From IMG/VR virus record IMGVR_UViG_3300013902_000013, positions 1 to 64,000 of that record: a stretch of DNA of 64,000 bases. One strand, written 5' to 3'. Of the stretch, positions 50,280 through 60,659 are shown in pieces; positions within the stretch are counted from its first letter, which is position 1, and each line of letters opens with the position of its first letter. The notes under the pieces are model-generated. The model was not told where the DNA came from, did not search any database, and saw only the letters and a list, made by a program, of their open reading frames with translations. This DNA comes from a virus (Duplodnaviria; Caudoviricetes). Position numbers and translations under genes: made by a program.

Positions 50280-50595
50280 GCTTATTTGCCCAAAAATTTT
50301 TCGGCGCGCCGGTCCTTGCAAAAGCAGTAAGAACAGTTGCGCGCCGCAGCAAATTTGACAACACAAAAATTTTCTGCTATAATTTTGTTGTAAACAAAAA
50401 ACAAACAAAAAAAGCAAAAACTGTGTTGAGGTCTAAACCAAAACCCTTTTATAAAAACTATAAAAAATATTATATAATAAATATATAAAGAAAAAGAAAT
50501 AAAGAAATTTGGAAAAAGTAAAAATTTATGATATAATAAATATATCAATTCACTTAAAAAAGTTATTACAAAAGGAAAGGAAAAAAAAGAATAAA

Positions 50596-50883
50596 ATGAA
50601 TTTAATTAATGAAAGCGCAAGTCGAAAGATCGATGACTTAGGTAGAATAACTATTCCTAAAAATATGAGAAAAAGATTAAATGTACATTCGGGAGAGGAT
50701 TTAGATTTCTATAGTTTAGAGCATGAAGGTAAATATTATGTATGCTTAACTTCTAAGCGGAATCCGCCATCTTATAAATATAAAATAGTAACAGATATTT
50801 TTAAAGAATATAATATAGAAGTACCAAAAGAATTTTTAGATGCAATAGCAAAAGAAACATTTAAAACAAGAGAAGAAGAATAA
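50596..50883 (+). CDS. abrB: AbrB/SpoVT-family transcriptional regulator
   Basis: Start re-called to ATG 50596; SRKIDDLGRITIPKNMRKRLNVHSGEDLDFY closely follows the AbrB N-terminal DNA-binding motif (RKVDELGRVVIP.ELRR.L.I...D.LEIY). Confidence 0.8.
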   Translation: MNLINESASRKIDDLGRITIPKNMRKRLNVHSGEDLDFYSLEHEGKYYVCLTSKRNPPSYKYKIVTDIFKEYNIEVPKEFLDAIAKETFKTREEE

Positions 50884-53226: not shown

Positions 53227-53519
53227 TGGTAAAGAGAGCGGCTTTTATAGCCGCTTTTATAGGGCTTATGGTAGGCTATTGCCTACCACAAACGCCAAGT
53301 CTGACCTTGAAAGATGGTCAGGTTTTTGAGGTATGCACATACCTCGAAGACACCAAGAACGCCGGTACAGGCGTTTTCATTTATGACGGCGGTCATACCG
53401 CCGTTAGTAATAAAAGGGCTATTGATAGCCCTTTAAAACATTCACCATTACACAATGGTGAAAATTATATCGTTAAATTCAAAGACGATACCATTATAGA
53501 ATGGTATCGTCTGAAATAA
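53217..53519 (+). CDS. Small exported/membrane-anchored protein, paralog of 56278-56532
   Basis: N-terminal hydrophobic segment; AGTGVFIYDG...L.N...YIV...DDTIIEW shared with 56278-56532. Confidence 0.7.
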   Translation: MGVMVKRAAFIAAFIGLMVGYCLPQTPSLTLKDGQVFEVCTYLEDTKNAGTGVFIYDGGHTAVSNKRAIDSPLKHSPLHNGENYIVKFKDDTIIEWYRLK

Positions 53520-53534
53520 CAGGGGGGGGATATC

Positions 53535-53882
53535 ATGGAAAATAATAAGAATTTAATTAAATCTGTCGTACTGGCTGATTATAGCCAGTTCGTTGATGGC
53601 AAACACCGTAACGGTGGTTGCTATGGGTATGACGTGATTTACACGTATATGCCCGAACAGAACGGATTTGCTCGTGAATGGTGTACCACGTGCGAACTGA
53701 TACCAGACGCGCCAAGTGGCGTTTATTCGCTCACCGACGTGTTGAACGAAACAGCGGATTTTGTCCGCCGTCACGCTAACGAACAGGATTGTTACGTTAG
53801 CGTAAATTATACAATGGTGTGGGAGTCCACTCCATCAGAAAATACTGACATTGATATGTCAGATTGTTTTCTTGACGATTAG
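53535..53882 (+). CDS. Hypothetical early protein
   Basis: 115-aa ORF followed by a terminator hairpin at 53884-53915. Confidence 0.7.
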   Translation: MENNKNLIKSVVLADYSQFVDGKHRNGGCYGYDVIYTYMPEQNGFAREWCTTCELIPDAPSGVYSLTDVLNETADFVRRHANEQDCYVSVNYTMVWESTPSENTDIDMSDCFLDD

Positions 53883-53995
53883 AAAAATAAGGGGAACGTT
53901 TGTTCCCCTTATTTTTTTTATTTAAAACGAACAAGTGTTTGTTTCACTTGTTAGTTAGTTAGTCCTAACCAACAAACACTTGTTCTACTTTAATG

Positions 53996-54307
53996 CTTTA
54001 ATCCATTAAAGTAATTGCCCTGTACAACGATATACTTTAATACATTAAAGTATTAAAATGTTTTACAAGTGAATTATTTACTGTTCCATTTTAACGCTTT
54101 AGTGTATTAAAGTAATTGCACTCTGCAAGAGTAGGTTTAATGCTTTAGTGTAGTAAAGTATTTTACATTTCGTTTATTGAACTGTTCCACTTTAGTGTAT
54201 TAAAGTATTTTTCAAATGAAATATTGCACTGTTCCACTTTAATGCTTTAATGCGGTGAAGCAAGAAAATTATAAATCGTTGCACTTTACCACTTTAGTGT
54301 AGTGAAG
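53996..54307. repeat. Array of the CTTTA-N6-TAAAG palindrome, island 1
   Basis: Perfect copies at 53996, 54035, 54097, 54143 and 54190; near copies at 54245 and 54292. Confidence 0.9.
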
Positions 54308-54316
54308 TGCTGAAGC

Positions 54317-54366
54317 CCGAGCCAAGACGCCACATCTTTTTGGTCACTTGTTGCGTCTTGGCTCGG
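54317..54366. repeat. GC-rich hairpin, island 1
   Basis: Perfect 14-bp arms CCGAGCCAAGACGC / GCGTCTTGGCTCGG with a 22-nt loop. Confidence 0.9.
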
Positions 54367-54661
54367 CATTTAATTGAATTGTGAATTACTAAAAAATTAA
54401 TTGAAAAGTGCATAGTGCAAAAGTGAAAAGTCCAGCCCGAAACCATTCACTTATAAAACGAACGAACATATGTTCCAGTCGCATAGGTCACGAACACACG
54501 TTCATAGAACCTACGTTCTGGATACTTTTACCAGTGAACGCGCGTTCTATGTATTGAAATAAAAACATAATTATTTTCATTCCACCTATTGCAATTAATC
54601 CTATATGTGTTATAATGGTATTAAGTTAAGCGCAAGAGCGCAGAAAGTGAGGTATTTAAAA

Positions 54662-55132
54662 ATGAAAAAATTCAATATCTACTTAGATATGGATGGTACT
54701 ATTGCAAACCTTTACAATGTACCGAATTGGTTAGAAAAATTAAAAAATGAGGATACAACTCCATATGAACAAGCAGAATCCCTTGTTGATATGGAATTAT
54801 TAAGTGAATTATTAAAAAGTCCACTTGTATCGGCTAACATACTTTCATGGACTTCAAAGGGCGGCTCTATTAAATATAATCGTAAAGTTAGATATAGCAA
54901 ATTGAGATGGTTGCAGTCTCACGGTTTAGATATGCACATTATAGATAAATATATTATAGTTCCATACGGCACAAATAAAGCTGAAGCAATAGGAACAAGA
55001 TTAAATAGTTCATTTTATCTATTTGATGATGAATTAAACAATCGTTTAAATTGGATGAATGCGGGCGGTACTGCTTACGGGGCAGAAAAAATTATCGAAA
55101 AAATCAGATTTTTGCTTGACTTATATAAATGA
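54662..55132 (+). CDS. HAD-superfamily phosphatase (5'-nucleotidase-like)
   Basis: IYLDMDGTIANLY motif I, K...I, and LFDD motif IV; start re-called to ATG 54662 after a GAGGT RBS. Confidence 0.8.
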   Translation: MKKFNIYLDMDGTIANLYNVPNWLEKLKNEDTTPYEQAESLVDMELLSELLKSPLVSANILSWTSKGGSIKYNRKVRYSKLRWLQSHGLDMHIIDKYIIVPYGTNKAEAIGTRLNSSFYLFDDELNNRLNWMNAGGTAYGAEKIIEKIRFLLDLYK

Positions 55133-55210
55133 ATATGATAATATAATTACAGGAAGTTATTAAGGGCGGATACAGCAAAATCCGCCCAGTCAGAAAAGGA
55201 TGGTAAACAA

Positions 55211-55447
55211 ATGAATCTTGAAATTTTAAACATCACAGCAATTCAGATGGGCGCTCTTGTAAATGAGGGCGCCGACCACGTAACAATTATGGGGATTAAT
55301 GACCCTGTAGTTATGATTGCAATATACAAAGAAAACAAATTAGTGGTTACATATTATAGCCACGCAGTAAAAGAACACGTACTGTATACGGGTGTAACTG
55401 CTGAACCTGAAAAAATAATATGTGGTTTAATGGGAATGTTATTATAA
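55211..55447 (+). CDS. Hypothetical protein
   Basis: 78-aa ORF with RBS and an upstream promoter-like sequence. Confidence 0.65.
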   Translation: MNLEILNITAIQMGALVNEGADHVTIMGINDPVVMIAIYKENKLVVTYYSHAVKEHVLYTGVTAEPEKIICGLMGMLL

Positions 55448-55470
55448 TAGAAAAGAGAGGTATTTAAAAA

Positions 55471-55800
55471 ATGATTATCGAAACAAAAGAATTTAATAAG
55501 TTAATGGAATTAAACCCATCATGGGAGTTCTGGACAAGATTTGAAAGCACACATGCAGTTTATATAAGAATTTCTGACGTAAAATCAGAAGAATTTTTAT
55601 ATAATATTGTTATGCACGACACTTATTGTGTATTACAGGACAAAGAAGATAATATTATTTTAAAAAGTAATTTTCCGGAAATTGTAAAATATTTAACAAT
55701 GAGCAGGGAAGAATTAAAACAAGAATTAATAGAAGCAATAAACAATGAAGAATATGCAATAGCTATTGCATTAGTAAATATTTTAAGAGATGATTATTAG
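55471..55800 (+). CDS. Hypothetical protein
   Basis: 109-aa ORF with GAGGT RBS. Confidence 0.65.
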   Translation: MIIETKEFNKLMELNPSWEFWTRFESTHAVYIRISDVKSEEFLYNIVMHDTYCVLQDKEDNIILKSNFPEIVKYLTMSREELKQELIEAINNEEYAIAIALVNILRDDY

Positions 55801-55900
55801 ATAAAGAAAAATTTAAAATGAGCTTGTTAATGTTCCATTTTTTTTAAAATGAGTATTAACAAGCTCCAGTAAATAAATAAAAGAAAATTTTGAAATGAGC

Positions 55901-55929
55901 TTGACAAAGCTCCAGTAATGCGGTATAAT
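55901..55929 (+). promoter_or_regulatory. Consensus SigA promoter
   Basis: TTGACA-17 nt-TATAAT. Confidence 0.85.
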
Positions 55930-55961
55930 TAGTTATCAAATGAAACAGGAGGAATTTAAAA

Positions 55962-56264
55962 ATGAAAATCATAAATCTTACACCACACACAATCAATATT
56001 TCTGATTTGGTTATTCCATCAAGTGGAATAGCAAGAGCAAAGCAGGAAAGTAAACAGGTTGACACTATTGACGGAATACCAGTTTACAATACGGTTTATG
56101 GAGAGGTTGAAAACCTTCCAGAGCCGCAGGACGGAGTTATATACGTCGTATCTGCTTTGACTGCACAGGCAGTTCCAGACCGCAAAGACGTATATATCAC
56201 ATTCGGCGCGGTAAGAGATGAAGCCGGTAAAATTATCGGTTGCACCGGATTAGCACATATTTAA
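55962..56264 (+). CDS. Conserved-looking phage hypothetical protein
   Basis: MKIINLTPHTINI...IPSSGIAR...ENLPEPQDGVIYVVSAL.AQA..DRKD; AGGAGG RBS. Confidence 0.75.
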   Translation: MKIINLTPHTINISDLVIPSSGIARAKQESKQVDTIDGIPVYNTVYGEVENLPEPQDGVIYVVSALTAQAVPDRKDVYITFGAVRDEAGKIIGCTGLAHI

Positions 56265-56277
56265 AGGGAGGTTAAAA

Positions 56278-56532
56278 ATGAAAGGTATTTTAATGGGTTT
56301 AATATTATTAAGTTCCATCACAACAGCGCCAACTGAATACATGGTAGAAATGGAATATTACAATGACATTCCAAGCGTCGCAGGCGTTGGCGTTTTTTAC
56401 GACGGTGACACATGTTATTATTCAGTAGAAGATATTACCCTTGAAAACGAACATCGTTACATTGTCGTTTTAAACGACCAAGGAACAGCAGATAAAAACG
56501 ACGACACAATCATTCTATATTGGGAGAAATAA
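56278..56532 (+). CDS. Small exported protein, paralog of 53217-53519
   Basis: Signal-peptide-like N-terminus; AGVGVFYDG...LEN..RYIV...DDTIILYW. Confidence 0.7.
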   Translation: MKGILMGLILLSSITTAPTEYMVEMEYYNDIPSVAGVGVFYDGDTCYYSVEDITLENEHRYIVVLNDQGTADKNDDTIILYWEK

Positions 56533-56559
56533 AAAAATTAAAGATTCACATTTTAATCA

Positions 56560-57420
56560 GTTCCATGCAAGAGCAAAGATTAAAATGTGAATCTTTTTTT
56601 AAACATGTATACAAGCAAGAGCAAAGAAAACATGTATACAATCGCGCGGACGCAGCAAAATTCAACTGTTCGCGCGGTCAATTATTAGCTGTTCCACCTA
56701 TTGCGCGTGAAATAATTGATAATGTCAATAATTTCATTTGAAACAATTGCACTTTACCACTTTAGCACTTTAAAGCGTGAGCCGTGAGCCTCGCTGTGAC
56801 GTTTGCGCCCTTTGAACGTCACAGCGAGGCATTTACTTAACAAGTGAATTATCAATTTTTTAATTAACAAGTGCATAGTGAACTTGTGAATAGTTGGCGC
56901 CCGAAACTATTGACCTCTTCAAACACTTTAGCGCAGTAAAGCGTTAATGCGCTAAAGTGAAAACTATAAACTCCCTCTTCAGCACTTCACTGCGCTAAAG
57001 CGTTAATGTACTAAAGCGAAATTTAAAACATGTATACAATCATGCGGATTGTATACGATTTGAGAATTGTATACATGTTTTAAATTTCGCTTTAGTACAT
57101 TAAAGTGGAAGAGCGCAATAATCCGCAGAGTCAACGGTACGCCGGAGCATGTATACAATATGCAACATACAAAATACAATGCTCCCAAATGGAATAAAAA
57201 ACGAACTGATATGCAGAACAGTTGTTTGCCGTGCTCCCGGAGCATTTCACAAGTGAATTATTGACAAGATCAATGATCGGAGCACGGGAGCATCATTCAT
57301 TGTTTAGATCAATTATATGTATGACAATTATATCATGCTATTGCATGCTCCCGCAATAAAATTGTATTTTTGTATACGTGTATTTGAGTAGAAAAACACT
57401 TGCAATCTATCCTCCCACGG
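56560..57420. repeat. Non-coding motif island 2
   Basis: TGTATACA at 56606, 56633, 57031, 57068 and 57150; CTTTA-N6-TAAAG at 56760, 56926 and 57090 plus near copies; 16-bp hairpin at 56788-56830; GGGAGCA/TGCTCCC at 57180, 57232, 57286 and 57346. Confidence 0.85.
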
Positions 57421-57608
57421 TCTATAATATAATTGTTCTTGAGAACGGGAACACAACGGGAGTTGAAAACAAGTTTTCAAGAATGAAAAAAAGTGATTGA
57501 CAACTTACTGAAAAAGTTTTAAAATAGTAAGTGTCAAGGGAACTTGATAAAATGTTTATAAAAGTAAAGTCAGGTACAAGACTATAAAACCGAAAGGATA
57601 GGTAAATT

Positions 57609-57977
57609 ATGGTAACTAACAAGATGACACAGGTAAAAGCTTTAGCACTTGCGATTGAAGCAGTTAGAAACGGCGAAACCGTTTCTGATGAAGTTGTCAA
57701 CAAGCTTGTTGACATTAAGAACGCGCTTGAGAAAAAGGCTAATTCTACAAGTCGCAAGGCGTCAAATGCAAACGCTGAACTGTTAGAAAAGGTGCTCCCA
57801 CTGTTTACAGATGCGCCAAACACACTTACAGAGGTGCTTACTGCACATCGTGAAGAGTTTGACAAGTTAGGGATTTTGACAAGTCAGAAGTTGAACGCCG
57901 TTATCCGTCCAGCCGTGGAAGATGGTCGCATCTTCAGAGAAAAGGACGGTAAAACGACCACTTTTAAGCTTGCTTAA
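57609..57977 (+). CDS. Putative winged-helix DNA-binding protein, copy A
   Basis: C-terminal LTEVL...LTSQKLNAVIRPAVEDGRIFREKDGKTTTFKLA is wHTH-like; the C-terminal half is nearly identical to 60660-61022. Confidence 0.7.
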   Translation: MVTNKMTQVKALALAIEAVRNGETVSDEVVNKLVDIKNALEKKANSTSRKASNANAELLEKVLPLFTDAPNTLTEVLTAHREEFDKLGILTSQKLNAVIRPAVEDGRIFREKDGKTTTFKLA

Positions 57978-58037
57978 AATCGTTATTGCTTGTGAGTTGG
58001 GAGCTTTAAAGCTCCCAACGATTAAAGGACTTGCACA

Positions 58038-58427
58038 TTGAAAACAGAATACAACGAAAATCAGATTGTTAATCTGATGCAGTCGCTTGACATCTCACGC
58101 AATGAAGCAATGGAGATATTACAAGCGGATGCGGAAATTGATAAAGGCGCAAAACTGTTTGAATTGACCGCCGAACAGAAAGCCGTTGAAAAAAAGATGC
58201 GTAAAACTGTCAAGACAGTATCTCCCAACGGCAAAAAGATTCAGCGTGAATTAAAAATTGACGACAACAGAGAATTGTTGTTGACTTCAATAATTGAGTT
58301 GTTCAAGAATGAGTTTTCGATTGAAAATATCAAACGACCGCCACGCACGACAAACAAAATTCGGTTTGATTTTAATGGTGACACTTTTAATATCACTATT
58401 GCAAAGGAAAGGAAGAAAGGTAAATAA
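58038..58427 (+). CDS. Hypothetical protein, copy A of the second duplicated gene
   Basis: LDIS..EA.EI..AD.EID.GAKLFEL..EQK.VEK.MRKTVK.V.PNGKK shared with 61090-61452. Confidence 0.75.
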   Translation: MKTEYNENQIVNLMQSLDISRNEAMEILQADAEIDKGAKLFELTAEQKAVEKKMRKTVKTVSPNGKKIQRELKIDDNRELLLTSIIELFKNEFSIENIKRPPRTTNKIRFDFNGDTFNITIAKERKKGK

Positions 58428-58432
58428 TTAAA

Positions 58433-59140
58433 ATGTTTTACAATCCAGTTCAGAACAAAGATAACCGCCGTACATACTACATGGTTTTAGATACCGAAAC
58501 CGCAACATACAAAGAAAATATTAAGGCGGTCAAAGGTACAAATATGCTTGTCTATGATTTAGGCTATGCAATAGTAGACAAGAACGGGCGTATTTATGAA
58601 ACAGGTTCATACATCGTAAAAGAAATATTCTATGATGAAATAGAACGTATGAGAACGTGTTATTTTGCTGACAAGCGTACGGACTATATACAGGATATAG
58701 AATTTGGTTTACATACAGTTGTAAACTGGTCTAATCTTATGTTTCTGTTATTGGAACGTGCGGAACACTGGAACATCCGTGCAATATGCGCTTATAATGC
58801 AAAATTCGATTACGGCGCAATTTGCCGCACGAATAATTACGTTAACGGCAAATACTGGATACCACCATTGCTGAAAAAGTTTCCAACGTGGGATATTATG
58901 AAAATGGTAAAAGATACCATTTATGATAGACCTACATATCAGCAGTTCTGTTTTGATAATGGGAACCTGACGGCGCACAAACCGCCACGAGCACAGATAA
59001 AAGCCGAAACAGTAAAACAGTATCTTGATAATAATCCACTGTATGAAGAAATACATACAGGTTTAGAGGATGTTTTAATTGAATCTGAAATACTGGCTAA
59101 ATGTTTCAGCACTCACAAAAAGATGCGCCGTGAACTGTAA
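58433..59140 (+). CDS. DEDDh-family 3'-5' exonuclease
   Basis: MVLDTETA (ExoI), AYNAKFD (ExoII), HTGLEDVLIE (ExoIII). Confidence 0.85.
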   Translation: MFYNPVQNKDNRRTYYMVLDTETATYKENIKAVKGTNMLVYDLGYAIVDKNGRIYETGSYIVKEIFYDEIERMRTCYFADKRTDYIQDIEFGLHTVVNWSNLMFLLLERAEHWNIRAICAYNAKFDYGAICRTNNYVNGKYWIPPLLKKFPTWDIMKMVKDTIYDRPTYQQFCFDNGNLTAHKPPRAQIKAETVKQYLDNNPLYEEIHTGLEDVLIESEILAKCFSTHKKMRREL

Positions 59141-59213
59141 TAAATAATTAAAGTTAAAAGGTCAAGCAGTTTATTATAAACTGCTTGACTGATAGAAAAT
59201 GGGGATTTAAAAC

Positions 59214-59564
59214 ATGTTTAAAGCAGCAATAACAAATATAGCAAATATCTGTAATTATATAAATGATTTTGCACTTATTATAGATTATGCAGATAAAATC
59301 ATAAAAATAGTGGATGCAAATGAATATGAAAACGATATTATATCAATTCATTTTGTAGATGATGAGATTGAATGTTACAATGAAAAATACGTCGAATATC
59401 CTTTTATAGTAGATACTATTGAAGAATTAAATACATTCATTTGCAGAAATATTTTAACATTAGAATTTGAGATGCTTTTAGATGAAATAGATTTAAACAC
59501 AAGTAATTTTAAAGAATTGCTTGAATGTTTAGGCAAGATGAATGCTATGTATATTCTTAATTAA
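59214..59564 (+). CDS. Hypothetical acidic protein
   Basis: 116-aa ORF with RBS. Confidence 0.6.
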   Translation: MFKAAITNIANICNYINDFALIIDYADKIIKIVDANEYENDIISIHFVDDEIECYNEKYVEYPFIVDTIEELNTFICRNILTLEFEMLLDEIDLNTSNFKELLECLGKMNAMYILN

Positions 59565-59627
59565 GAATAAATAATTTACAGCTTAAGTGGCGGCTACAGC
59601 AAGCCGCCACAATAAAGGAAGTATATA

Positions 59628-59927
59628 ATGAATAAAACAGATAAATATTTAAATATTAGTAAGATAGCAGAAAAAATTGAACACATAATTAATAACAATG
59701 ATTATGATTTTGAGGTAACCGATAATTGTTTAATGGTTTGCGACAACGATACAATAATCATAATATTAACTGATAATTTTTTAAATAGTCATAACTTGAA
59801 TGATGTCATATACAATATAAAAGTTGGAATGTTAATCAATGAGATAAATATTCGTCATGACAATTATTGTCTTGACGATGAACAGGTTGACGCAATGTTA
59901 AATATTGTAACAGGATTAAACTATTAA
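59628..59927 (+). CDS. Hypothetical acidic protein
   Basis: 99-aa ORF with RBS. Confidence 0.6.
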   Translation: MNKTDKYLNISKIAEKIEHIINNNDYDFEVTDNCLMVCDNDTIIIILTDNFLNSHNLNDVIYNIKVGMLINEINIRHDNYCLDDEQVDAMLNIVTGLNY

Positions 59928-59929
59928 CA

Positions 59930-60400
59930 AGTGAAAAGTTCCCGACACTTTATCACTCTATTGCGGTAAAGCGTTGGGAGCATCGTTTTAGTCCTTTACC
60001 ACTTTACTCTATTAAAGCGGGAGCACGAACGAATGTTTGTTCGAGAGTACGAGAACACGAACAGACGTTTTAGAAAACATGCGTTCGCCGAACGGGAGCA
60101 TCGAACAGGTGTTCGCGAACAGACGTTCACAGGGAGCATGGCCTCGCTGTCACGACTGCTCTTCGTTTGTCGTGACAGCGAGGCATTTAGCTGAAACTTC
60201 ACTTGTGAATTATTTGTTTGGACAATCAAATTATTAGTATGACAATTATTTCGCCTGAAACTATTGATATATACAATAATTCACAAGAGAAGTGAAATTG
60301 TATACATGTTTTAATGCAGATCAATTGTATACAATCCGAAAATTGTATACATGTTCTTTAATCTTCTAAAAAATACAATTTTAATGCTTTAATGTGGCAA
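59930..60400. repeat. Non-coding motif island 3
   Basis: SOS boxes (perfect at 60103 and 60117; near at 60027, 60059 and 60075); GGGAGCA at 59976, 60019, 60094 and 60132; CTTTA-N6-TAAAG at 60002; 16-bp hairpin at 60141-60184; TGTATACA at 60299, 60326 and 60344. Confidence 0.85.
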
Positions 60401-60659
60401 AATATGTTAAAAATTTAACAAAAAGTATACAAAATACATAAAAAATGCACAAAATTTTTCAAAAACGCTTGCAAAACTGCAAAAAATTTGTTATTATTAT
60501 AATACAAACAAGAGGGAAAGAAAAAGAAAAAATCCTCTTCAAAAAAAATTAAAAAACCTATTGACAAACCTTCAAGCTTATGTTAATATATAAGTACAAA
60601 AGGGGAACAAAACAAAGTCAGCTGACAAAGACGTTAAAACAGAGAAAAGGAACAAATTA

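Follow-up and report, generated by a model that had tools for sequence, protein, structure and literature searches.

LexA-type box arrays outside promoters in the early region of a large uncultured gut phage

Results

Perfect GAAC-N4-GTTC boxes are confined to non-coding islands

IMG/VR record IMGVR_UViG_3300013902_000013 (75.8 kb, estimated to be 49% complete) comes from a large uncultured gut phage, and its first 64 kb form the stretch of DNA analysed here (the window). The plus-strand early region of this phage contains four long non-coding islands, which sum to 3.1 kb, or 4% of the record, and three of the four hold every perfect copy of GAAC-N4-GTTC, the LexA box of Firmicutes, that we found. 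Seven perfect sites lie in the window, beginning at 53894, 54464, 54492, 54507, 54536, 60103, and 60117, just where a preliminary description of this DNA had placed them, and two more, set back to back at 64752 and 64766, follow just past the window and bring the total for the record to nine. That description had suggested a genome-wide count of the boxes as a check, and the count is uneven, in that all nine perfect sites are in the early islands and the 54 kb of late genes are free of them. Its rough expectation of about 0.6 perfect sites per 64 kb was also borne out, as 100 dinucleotide-preserving shuffles contained 0.58 sites on average and at most 3. The four-nucleotide spacer is the only one enriched in the record (9 sites, against 0–3 for each of the other spacings from 0 to 10).

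The six near-perfect variants that had been listed alongside the perfect boxes all exist. Five of them (at 53929, 53974, 60027, 60059, and 60075) can be counted with the boxes because they cluster in the islands, whereas the sixth, at 57216, is possibly a chance occurrence. The one-mismatch class as a whole is barely above chance (28 sites with no more than one mismatch, against 15.8 ± 3.6 expected), and the density of one-mismatch sites over the whole record is about 0.2 per kb.

The phage and its relatives

The terminase of the phage is YonF-like, with 42–47% identity to those of Enterococcus phages H1 and EF1, Phass-1, and Geobacillus virus E3, and about 32% identity to those of Bacillus phages such as PK-3 and FADO. 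The record also contains an open reading frame (ORF) of tape-measure size (2,992 codons). To judge from its sequence, the phage is a distant SPbeta-type large siphovirus, apparently virulent, whose host would be a low-G+C Firmicute, possibly of the genus Clostridium.

Two contigs are close relatives. The first, a 123-kb IMG/VR contig (G004) whose terminase is 94% identical, spans the genome leftward and stops exactly at the first island (island I); its other ~113 kb contain no box. The second is a contig of 28.6 kb that was binned in the metagenome-assembled genome (MAG) of an 'uncultured Clostridium sp.' and that is colinear with 47.3–74.8 kb of the record at 70–87% identity (hereafter the MAG phage). 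The MAG itself has a G+C content of ~31%, similar to that of the phage, and encodes a complete LexA. When we looked for SOS genes beside the perfect boxes on the other contigs of this MAG, the neighbours were ACP, RNase III, a GGGtGRT protein, and proteins without an assigned function, and one of these contigs looks phage-like.

Scans of IMG/VR for the back-to-back arrangement of boxes and for the perfect 14-mer uncovered a sister lineage of phage contigs with 35–38% G+C, among whose members are G001–G003, L053, L061, L063, L066, L084, L086, and L106. Their box density is 7–20 per 7–18 kb, and they have 10–20 early proteins in common among themselves and only 1–3 in common with the phage studied here. 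Five records, G000–G004 (G000 being the record of this phage), together cover most of one genome; individual phage records are 26–79% complete. No match to positions 53500–60500 was found in the phage collection by blastn or Megablast, PHROGs and Pfam assigned almost no functions to the ~35 early ORFs, and scans with Rfam and for tRNAs over the window and the rest of the record gave no match.

The boxes carry the LexA consensus

To compare the boxes with known operators we pooled 125 sites from 11 array-bearing phage contigs (the family). Information in the aligned sites is found only within 14 bp, and the consensus, CGAACATATGTTCG, is identical to the published LexA consensus of Bacillus subtilis (PMC8270828). 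Of the 125 sites, 33 match it at 14 of 14 positions and a further 44 have one mismatch. The preference for the N4 spacer holds family-wide (116 sites, against 1–7 for other spacings).

Individual boxes of the record depart from CGAACATATGTTCG by 1, 1, 2, 3, 3, 3, 4, 4, and 6 mismatches. LexA has been reported to bind SPbeta promoter regions at 4–12 nM where the boxes have 3–4 mismatches (PMC8270828), and by this yardstick eight of the nine boxes, those with no more than four mismatches, qualify. SPbeta itself contains four boxes with a perfect core, which are also listed in that publication, a review of SPbeta. The box at 53894, for example, has four mismatches to the 14-mer, none of them in the core. 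The fit of the boxes is at the level of LexA-binding sites (3–5 mismatches, none in the core).

HisR-type and Rex-type operators accompany the boxes

A second palindrome, CTTTA-N6-TAAAG, occurs in perfect form nine times in the window (0.29 expected), always in the islands, and 12 times in the record. It matches the HisR operator consensus of Firmicutes, cacTTTAnnnnnnTAAAgtg, which was validated in vitro for the HisR protein of Ruminococcus gnavus (PMC9413887). The early region of the relatives is a string of cassettes, each made of a terminator, palindromes, and a promoter, around one to three small genes, and cassettes of the sister lineage carry TTGTTAA-N4-TTAACAA, the operator consensus of clostridial Rex (Ravcheev et al. 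2012, quoted in PMC5367854). Nine perfect copies are present in G002, all within its box-rich stretch, and L084 has 18 Rex-like sites in which the half-sites are conserved and the spacers vary; no fixed distance separates the Rex-like boxes from promoters. In the islands of the window the sole site with one mismatch to the Rex consensus is ATGTTAAAAATTTAACAA (60404–60421), which is perfect in the MAG phage, and the only other such site in the record, at 55682, lies within ORF 55471–55800.

Since the consensus sequences of LexA, HisR, and Rex are each matched independently and no cognate gene was found on the phage, host proteins are the most economical binders. The assignment of the boxes to the Firmicutes LexA operator in the preliminary description is supported indirectly, at the level of sequence, by the identity of the family consensus with CGAACATATGTTCG, its confinement to 14 bp, the enrichment of the N4 spacing alone, and the HisR and Rex operators alongside, and host LexA is probably the protein that binds the boxes.

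A further set of repeats, AAAACATGTATACAAT and TTGTATACATGTTTTAA, which have the core TGTATACA, occurs at 56606–57157, 60299–60351, and 63187 and includes a perfect 38-nt inverted repeat at 57003–57103. The TGTATACA-core repeats are the motif of this phage most like SPBRE, the operator of the SPbeta repressor MrpR (ACAAATAATATGTATATAA); no MrpR homologue was found in the records.

Searches for a binder encoded by the phage

No lexA or cI gene had been seen in the window, and Pfam identified no LexA_DNA_bind (PF01726) or Peptidase_S24 domain in the record or in four relatives. A tyrosine integrase, a large serine recombinase, a protein of the TrpR/HisR family, and a homologue of MrpR (YopR) were likewise not found in the record, G004, or three further relatives, so that there is no sign of lysogeny in these incomplete records. 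Two helix-turn-helix (HTH) proteins are present, an Xre-like antitoxin-type HTH ORF at 50509–50883, at the point where early and late genes diverge, and an HTH_36 protein at 72588–73277 of the record, and small phage regulators could have escaped detection.

These searches bear on the idea that the boxes are operators of a protein made by the phage, whether an early regulator, a master repressor like that of the SPBRE/MrpR system, a stoperator-type repressor, or a truncated LexA homologue like gp6 of GIL01, with the likeness to LexA sites either coincidental or evolved for competition. Phage repressors typically have operators that recur in many intergenic stretches of the early region (in SPbeta, MrpR binds ~10 SPBRE sites), the truncated LexA homologue of GIL01 binds a palindrome of its own, and the Xre-like and HTH_36 proteins are candidates in records that are only 26–79% complete. 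We nevertheless consider a phage-encoded binder rather unlikely. The box consensus equals the optimum of host LexA over exactly 14 bp, and with two further cassette motifs equal to the HisR and Rex consensus sequences, three coincidences would be needed. Neither a LexA_DNA_bind, S24, or TrpR protein nor an MrpR homologue appears in the five records, and the only early proteins common to both box-bearing lineages are enzymes, namely a deoxyribonucleotidase-like protein (54662–55132) and a DEDDh exonuclease (58433–59140). SPBRE, moreover, differs in sequence and lies inside promoters.

Two specific candidates of this kind were tried and rejected. The SPBRE consensus, derived from ten MrpR-occupied promoters of SPbeta, is AAATACAAATAATATGTATATAA, located between the −35 and −10 elements (PMC10516654); this is a different sequence from that of the boxes, and no MrpR homologue was found in the five records, so that the boxes are not an SPbeta-type MrpR operator. 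The 235-aa protein encoded at 58433–59140 (phrog_20187, of unknown function), a protein that has paralogues and is conserved across the two box-bearing lineages, was discarded as a box binder when alignment revealed the DEDDh 3′–5′ exonuclease motifs DxE, NxxFDY, and HTGLxD; with this protein as query, a search for related loci found none.

Unrelated phage contigs of 62% G+C carry 6–7 tandem GAACCACAGTTC repeats (L007, 1195–1321; L009, 4785–4911) with the same half-sites and a fixed spacer. These arrays are iteron-like and probably bound by a phage protein, a use of the motif that speaks for a phage-encoded binder and a caution that not every GAAC-N4-GTTC array should be read as a set of LexA sites.

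The boxes lie outside promoters and, in relatives, are phased to terminators

The preliminary description had offered two readings of the boxes, one in which the phage soaks up host LexA and one in which its early genes are under SOS control. According to the second, the boxes would be classical SOS operators at which LexA represses the downstream early operons until DNA damage turns them on. LexA-controlled phage genes are well documented, including in relatives of SPbeta (precedents are P1 and P3 of GIL01, tum of coliphage 186, and the SOS-boxed sar), the four-box array lies 41–125 bp upstream of the −35 element of the promoter at 54589, and LexA may repress from such upstream sites cooperatively or by looping. 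In the family, however, none of the 125 boxes overlaps a promoter of the TTGAC-N16-18-TATAAT type, even though these regions are rich in perfect ones, and the median distance from a box to the next −35 element is 156 bp. The next promoter-like site downstream of the pair at 60103 is ~430 bp away, at 60561, and the pair at 64752 sits between the ends of convergent genes; nowhere did we find the arrangement in which a LexA box overlaps or adjoins the promoter that it regulates. The records yielded no integrase, large serine recombinase, MrpR/SroF, or S24 repressor, hence there appears to be no lysogeny to maintain, and the closely related MAG phage lacks the perfect arrays and has kept the genes. 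Classical SOS control of the early genes is thus unsupported, and we regard it as unlikely.

In the family the boxes do have a fixed relation to terminators, which in the sister lineage they follow by 10–11 nt. Among 130 pooled terminators, 43 have a box 2–20 nt past the T-run, with a sharp mode at 10–11 nt, and 7 further terminators have a box in the hairpin; chance would give about one such case. Neither the terminator hairpins nor the bases between hairpin and box are related in sequence, which indicates that the spacing itself is conserved. In the lineage of the phage studied here the same layout is seen in the record (53923→53929 and 64655→64660) and in the MAG phage, at its first island, and most perfect boxes of this phage lie deep inside the islands. 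At the start of island I, the perfect box GGAACGTTTGTTCC (53894–53905), which had been described as lying inside a terminator, indeed forms the top of the hairpin, and the near-box at 53929 begins 5 nt past the T-run of that terminator (Table 1). The four-box array, when folded as RNA, does no better than shuffled sequences (z −1.1).

Table 1 Features of the non-coding islands and their surroundings
Feature	Position	Strand	Description
Non-coding islands	53.88–54.66, 56.74–57.61, 59.93–60.66, and 64.48–65.21 kb	+	Early region; the second is island II, without a perfect box
Intrinsic terminator of gene 53535–53882	53884–53923	+	Fold −23 kcal/mol, z −5.8; terminator scan
Two near-boxes, CGAACAAGTGTTTG (53929) and CAAACACTTGTTCT (53974)	53929–53985		Arms of a 24-nt inverted repeat (repeat I19; 53920–53994)
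HisR-type palindromes	53996–54205, 56760–57105, and 60002–60017 (window); 64688–64750 (record)		Often in 47–54-bp repeat units
Five perfect CTTTA-N6-TAAAG palindromes	53996–54205		47–54-bp repeat units; repeat families D1, D2, D4
Four-box array, all perfect	54464–54547		28, 15, and 29 bp centre to centre; 1, 3, 4, and 6 mismatches to CGAACATATGTTCG
Nearest promoter-like site, TTGCAA-16-TG-TATAAT	54589–54616	+	Serves gene 54662–55132; no box overlap; promoter scan
Island II elements	56760–57105		Three HisR-type palindromes and TGTATACA repeats; no perfect LexA-type box
Lone one-mismatch site AGAACAGTTGTTTG	57216–57227		Possibly chance
Four one-mismatch boxes, at 60027, 60031, 60059, and 60075	60027–60086		Cluster
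Back-to-back pair, CGAACAGGTGTTCG and CGAACAGACGTTCA	60103–60128		14 bp centre to centre

Boxes turn over between close relatives

Between this phage and the MAG phage the islands share 80–84% identity, and comparison of the two indicates that boxes are gained and lost within otherwise conserved surroundings. Homology breaks exactly at the four-box array, which makes this array lineage-specific. The 60103 pair, which lies directly upstream of a G+C-rich hairpin (60139–60190), is an insertion relative to the MAG phage with conserved flanks, and the 64752 pair is replaced in the MAG phage by another HisR-type unit. The near-boxes at 60027–60086 are conserved in position and drift within the sites; positions 60025–60069 form a 71% direct repeat of 54458–54502 (D17). 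Where boxes are common to the two phages, half-sites are kept and spacers drift. A number of boxes that changes while the neighbouring sequence is conserved fits an element that acts by dosage.

The near-boxes at 53929 and 53974 have perfect counterparts in the MAG phage, GAACATACGTTC and GAACGTATGTTC. Their spacers have changed in a mirrored fashion (AAGT/ACTT against ATAC/GTAT) with the half-sites kept, which suggests either that the inverted repeat is under selection or that its arms have undergone gene conversion.

Indels between the record and the MAG phage fall at the borders of modules, and this brings up the possibility that the palindromes mark the boundaries or act as recombination modules of mobile regulatory cassettes similar to the PeSLs of T4-type phages, are retained for mediating the shuffling of early genes, and resemble transcription factor sites only secondarily. 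The organisation of the early region of the relatives as terminator-palindromes-promoter cassettes would suit such a role, for which PeSLs provide a precedent. Homologous recombination, on the other hand, needs no match to the consensus of a host repressor, and neither the conservation of half-sites with free spacers (as in the Rex-like sites) nor the fixed 10–11 nt offset from unrelated terminators would be explained, which makes this possibility very unlikely. We note that islands II and III contain eight copies of the heptamer GGGAGCA or its complement (57180–57346, 59976, 60019, 60094, and 60132), against four elsewhere in the record, and that this heptamer seems to delimit short modules, including the inserted tandem LexA-type pair.

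Discussion

The boxes are, with a probability that we put at roughly one half, docking arrays for host LexA that act by occupancy, through titration, a roadblock, or both, from outside promoters, and that make up, with the HisR-type operators (and Rex-type ones in the sister lineage), gene-free islands separating the early operons. Their position outside promoters argues that they are not classical promoter-occluding operators. LexA binding, titration, and roadblock are all proposals that we infer from the arrangement of the sites, and the soak-up reading of the preliminary description is compatible with the layout.

Titration is the mechanism that we prefer for the packed arrays of the window. 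Incoming and replicating phage DNA would bind LexA at sites equal to or better than the tabulated host operators of B. subtilis; consensus-grade sites that are set back to back (14–15 bp centre to centre) and away from transcribed and promoter DNA would hold LexA, and likewise HisR; with replication the sites would come to outnumber the repressor pool; and LexA would be drawn off the SOS promoters of the host as the copy number of the phage rises. In the roadblock mechanism, LexA bound 10–11 nt past the T-run would meet RNA polymerase on the U-tract and reinforce termination between cassettes until SOS induction removes LexA. Titration would account for the arrays of the window and the roadblock for the phasing in relatives, and neither accounts for everything.

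Several points weigh against docking arrays for host LexA. Titration does not predict a fixed terminator distance of 10–11 nt, and a roadblock does not account for packed arrays deep in the islands. G+C-rich spacers (GCGC, ACAC, AGGT) and up to six mismatches are found in several boxes of the window, which may therefore be weak LexA sites, and because the repeated cassettes share ancestry, the site counts overstate the number of independent events. The boxes are not enriched in the cultured relatives Enterococcus H1, Phass-1, Geobacillus E3, Alicyclobacillus KKP_3916, and SPbeta, which confines the trait to a clade. The binning of the MAG phage contig is weak evidence for the host, and Rex and HisR were not found in the MAG, which is incomplete. 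Given that the phage records are incomplete too, a binder encoded by the phage may fall in DNA that they do not cover or have diverged beyond the reach of Pfam.

A broader and more tentative proposal, which we consider doubtful on present evidence, is that the islands are takeover devices that need no protein. They would be DNA sponges for several host repressors (LexA and HisR in this phage; LexA, HisR-type, and Rex in the sister lineage), and replication would strip these repressors from the chromosome and so switch on the SOS, histidine-supply, and NADH-recycling regulons, to the benefit of phage growth.

The arrays differ from all the precedents with which we compared them, in that they are off promoters, are present in multiple copies, and combine predicted operators of unrelated host repressors. 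The Spo0A boxes on the virulent phages phi29 and Nf (PMC2731898) are alike in being sites for a global regulator of the host that the phage does not encode, in a phage of the lytic class, through which host physiology acts on phage DNA; the Spo0A sites, however, overlap early promoters and origins and their binding has been demonstrated, whereas the LexA- and HisR-type sites described here are predicted, packed, and off promoters. The dinBoxes of GIL01, with gp7 and gp6 (PMC4551915, PMC6182141), and sar of SPbeta-like phages (bioRxiv 10.1101/2025.11.27.690993) share with the arrays the Firmicutes GAAC-N4-GTTC box and, on the reading proposed here, the use of host LexA in place of an SOS-sensing repressor of the phage, and P3 of GIL01 also has tandem boxes. 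In those systems a promoter of a temperate phage contains one or two boxes; in the present phage the islands have 4–7 boxes each, off promoters, and we found no lysogeny module or MrpR/SroF. The GIL01 pattern, a temperate phage with LexA boxes inside early and late promoters, was not found in G000–G004, which are incomplete records, and Pfam (PF01726) revealed no LexA-type DNA-binding domain like that of gp6; a gp7 homologue was not searched for.

SPBRE of SPbeta (PMC10516654) resembles the boxes in that it is short and recurs between many early genes of a large genome of the SPbeta type, and differs from them as a 15-bp motif inside promoters that is bound by the phage's own integrase-fold repressor, MrpR, of which this phage has no detected homologue. 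The PeSLs of T4-type phages (PMC2839356) are also repeated cassettes of a terminator and a strong promoter that flank small non-essential early genes and mark gene gain and loss; they contain no operators of host repressors.

Stoperators of cluster A mycobacteriophages are asymmetric 13–14-bp sites that are oriented with transcription and bound by the immunity repressor of the phage. The half-sites of the boxes instead form palindromes, and our searches revealed no phage repressor; the post-terminator position in relatives represents a likeness of roadblock function only.

Phages are known to borrow single sites for host regulators (LexA at one promoter; Spo0A on phi29), and in the literature searched we found no description of packed arrays of consensus-grade sites for two or three unrelated host repressors off promoters in a phage that shows no sign of lysogeny. 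If the sites bind their proteins, the arrays would represent a new form of virus–host coupling, in which the phage senses DNA damage, the level of histidine, and the redox state directly by way of host proteins, or reprograms host regulons by titration without a phage protein. Arrays of this kind could be of use as compact repressor decoys for work in Clostridia.

Other features of the early region

Three long G+C-rich hairpins (54317–54366, 56788–56830, and 60141–60184) have folding energies of −32 to −37 kcal/mol, with stems that differ and a GCATTTA flank that is conserved. Each is followed by an (A/T)GTGAATTA motif and a GCCYGAAACYATTGA motif. They lack a T-run and are thus not ordinary terminators.

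Between convergent genes, at 64780–65080 of the record and thus just past the window, lies a G+C-rich non-coding stretch that is highly conserved with the MAG phage and has a hairpin at its start. It gave no match in Rfam and is a candidate non-coding RNA.

Seven perfect TTGACA-16/17-TATAAT promoters are present on the plus strand of the early region (50355, 55901, 61477, 63009, and 63852 in the window; 64227 and 75678 in the record), several of which share a −10 and leader block (CTTATGTTAATATATAA..AAAAGGGGA). These perfect promoters point to very strong early transcription dependent on the sigma-A factor of the host.

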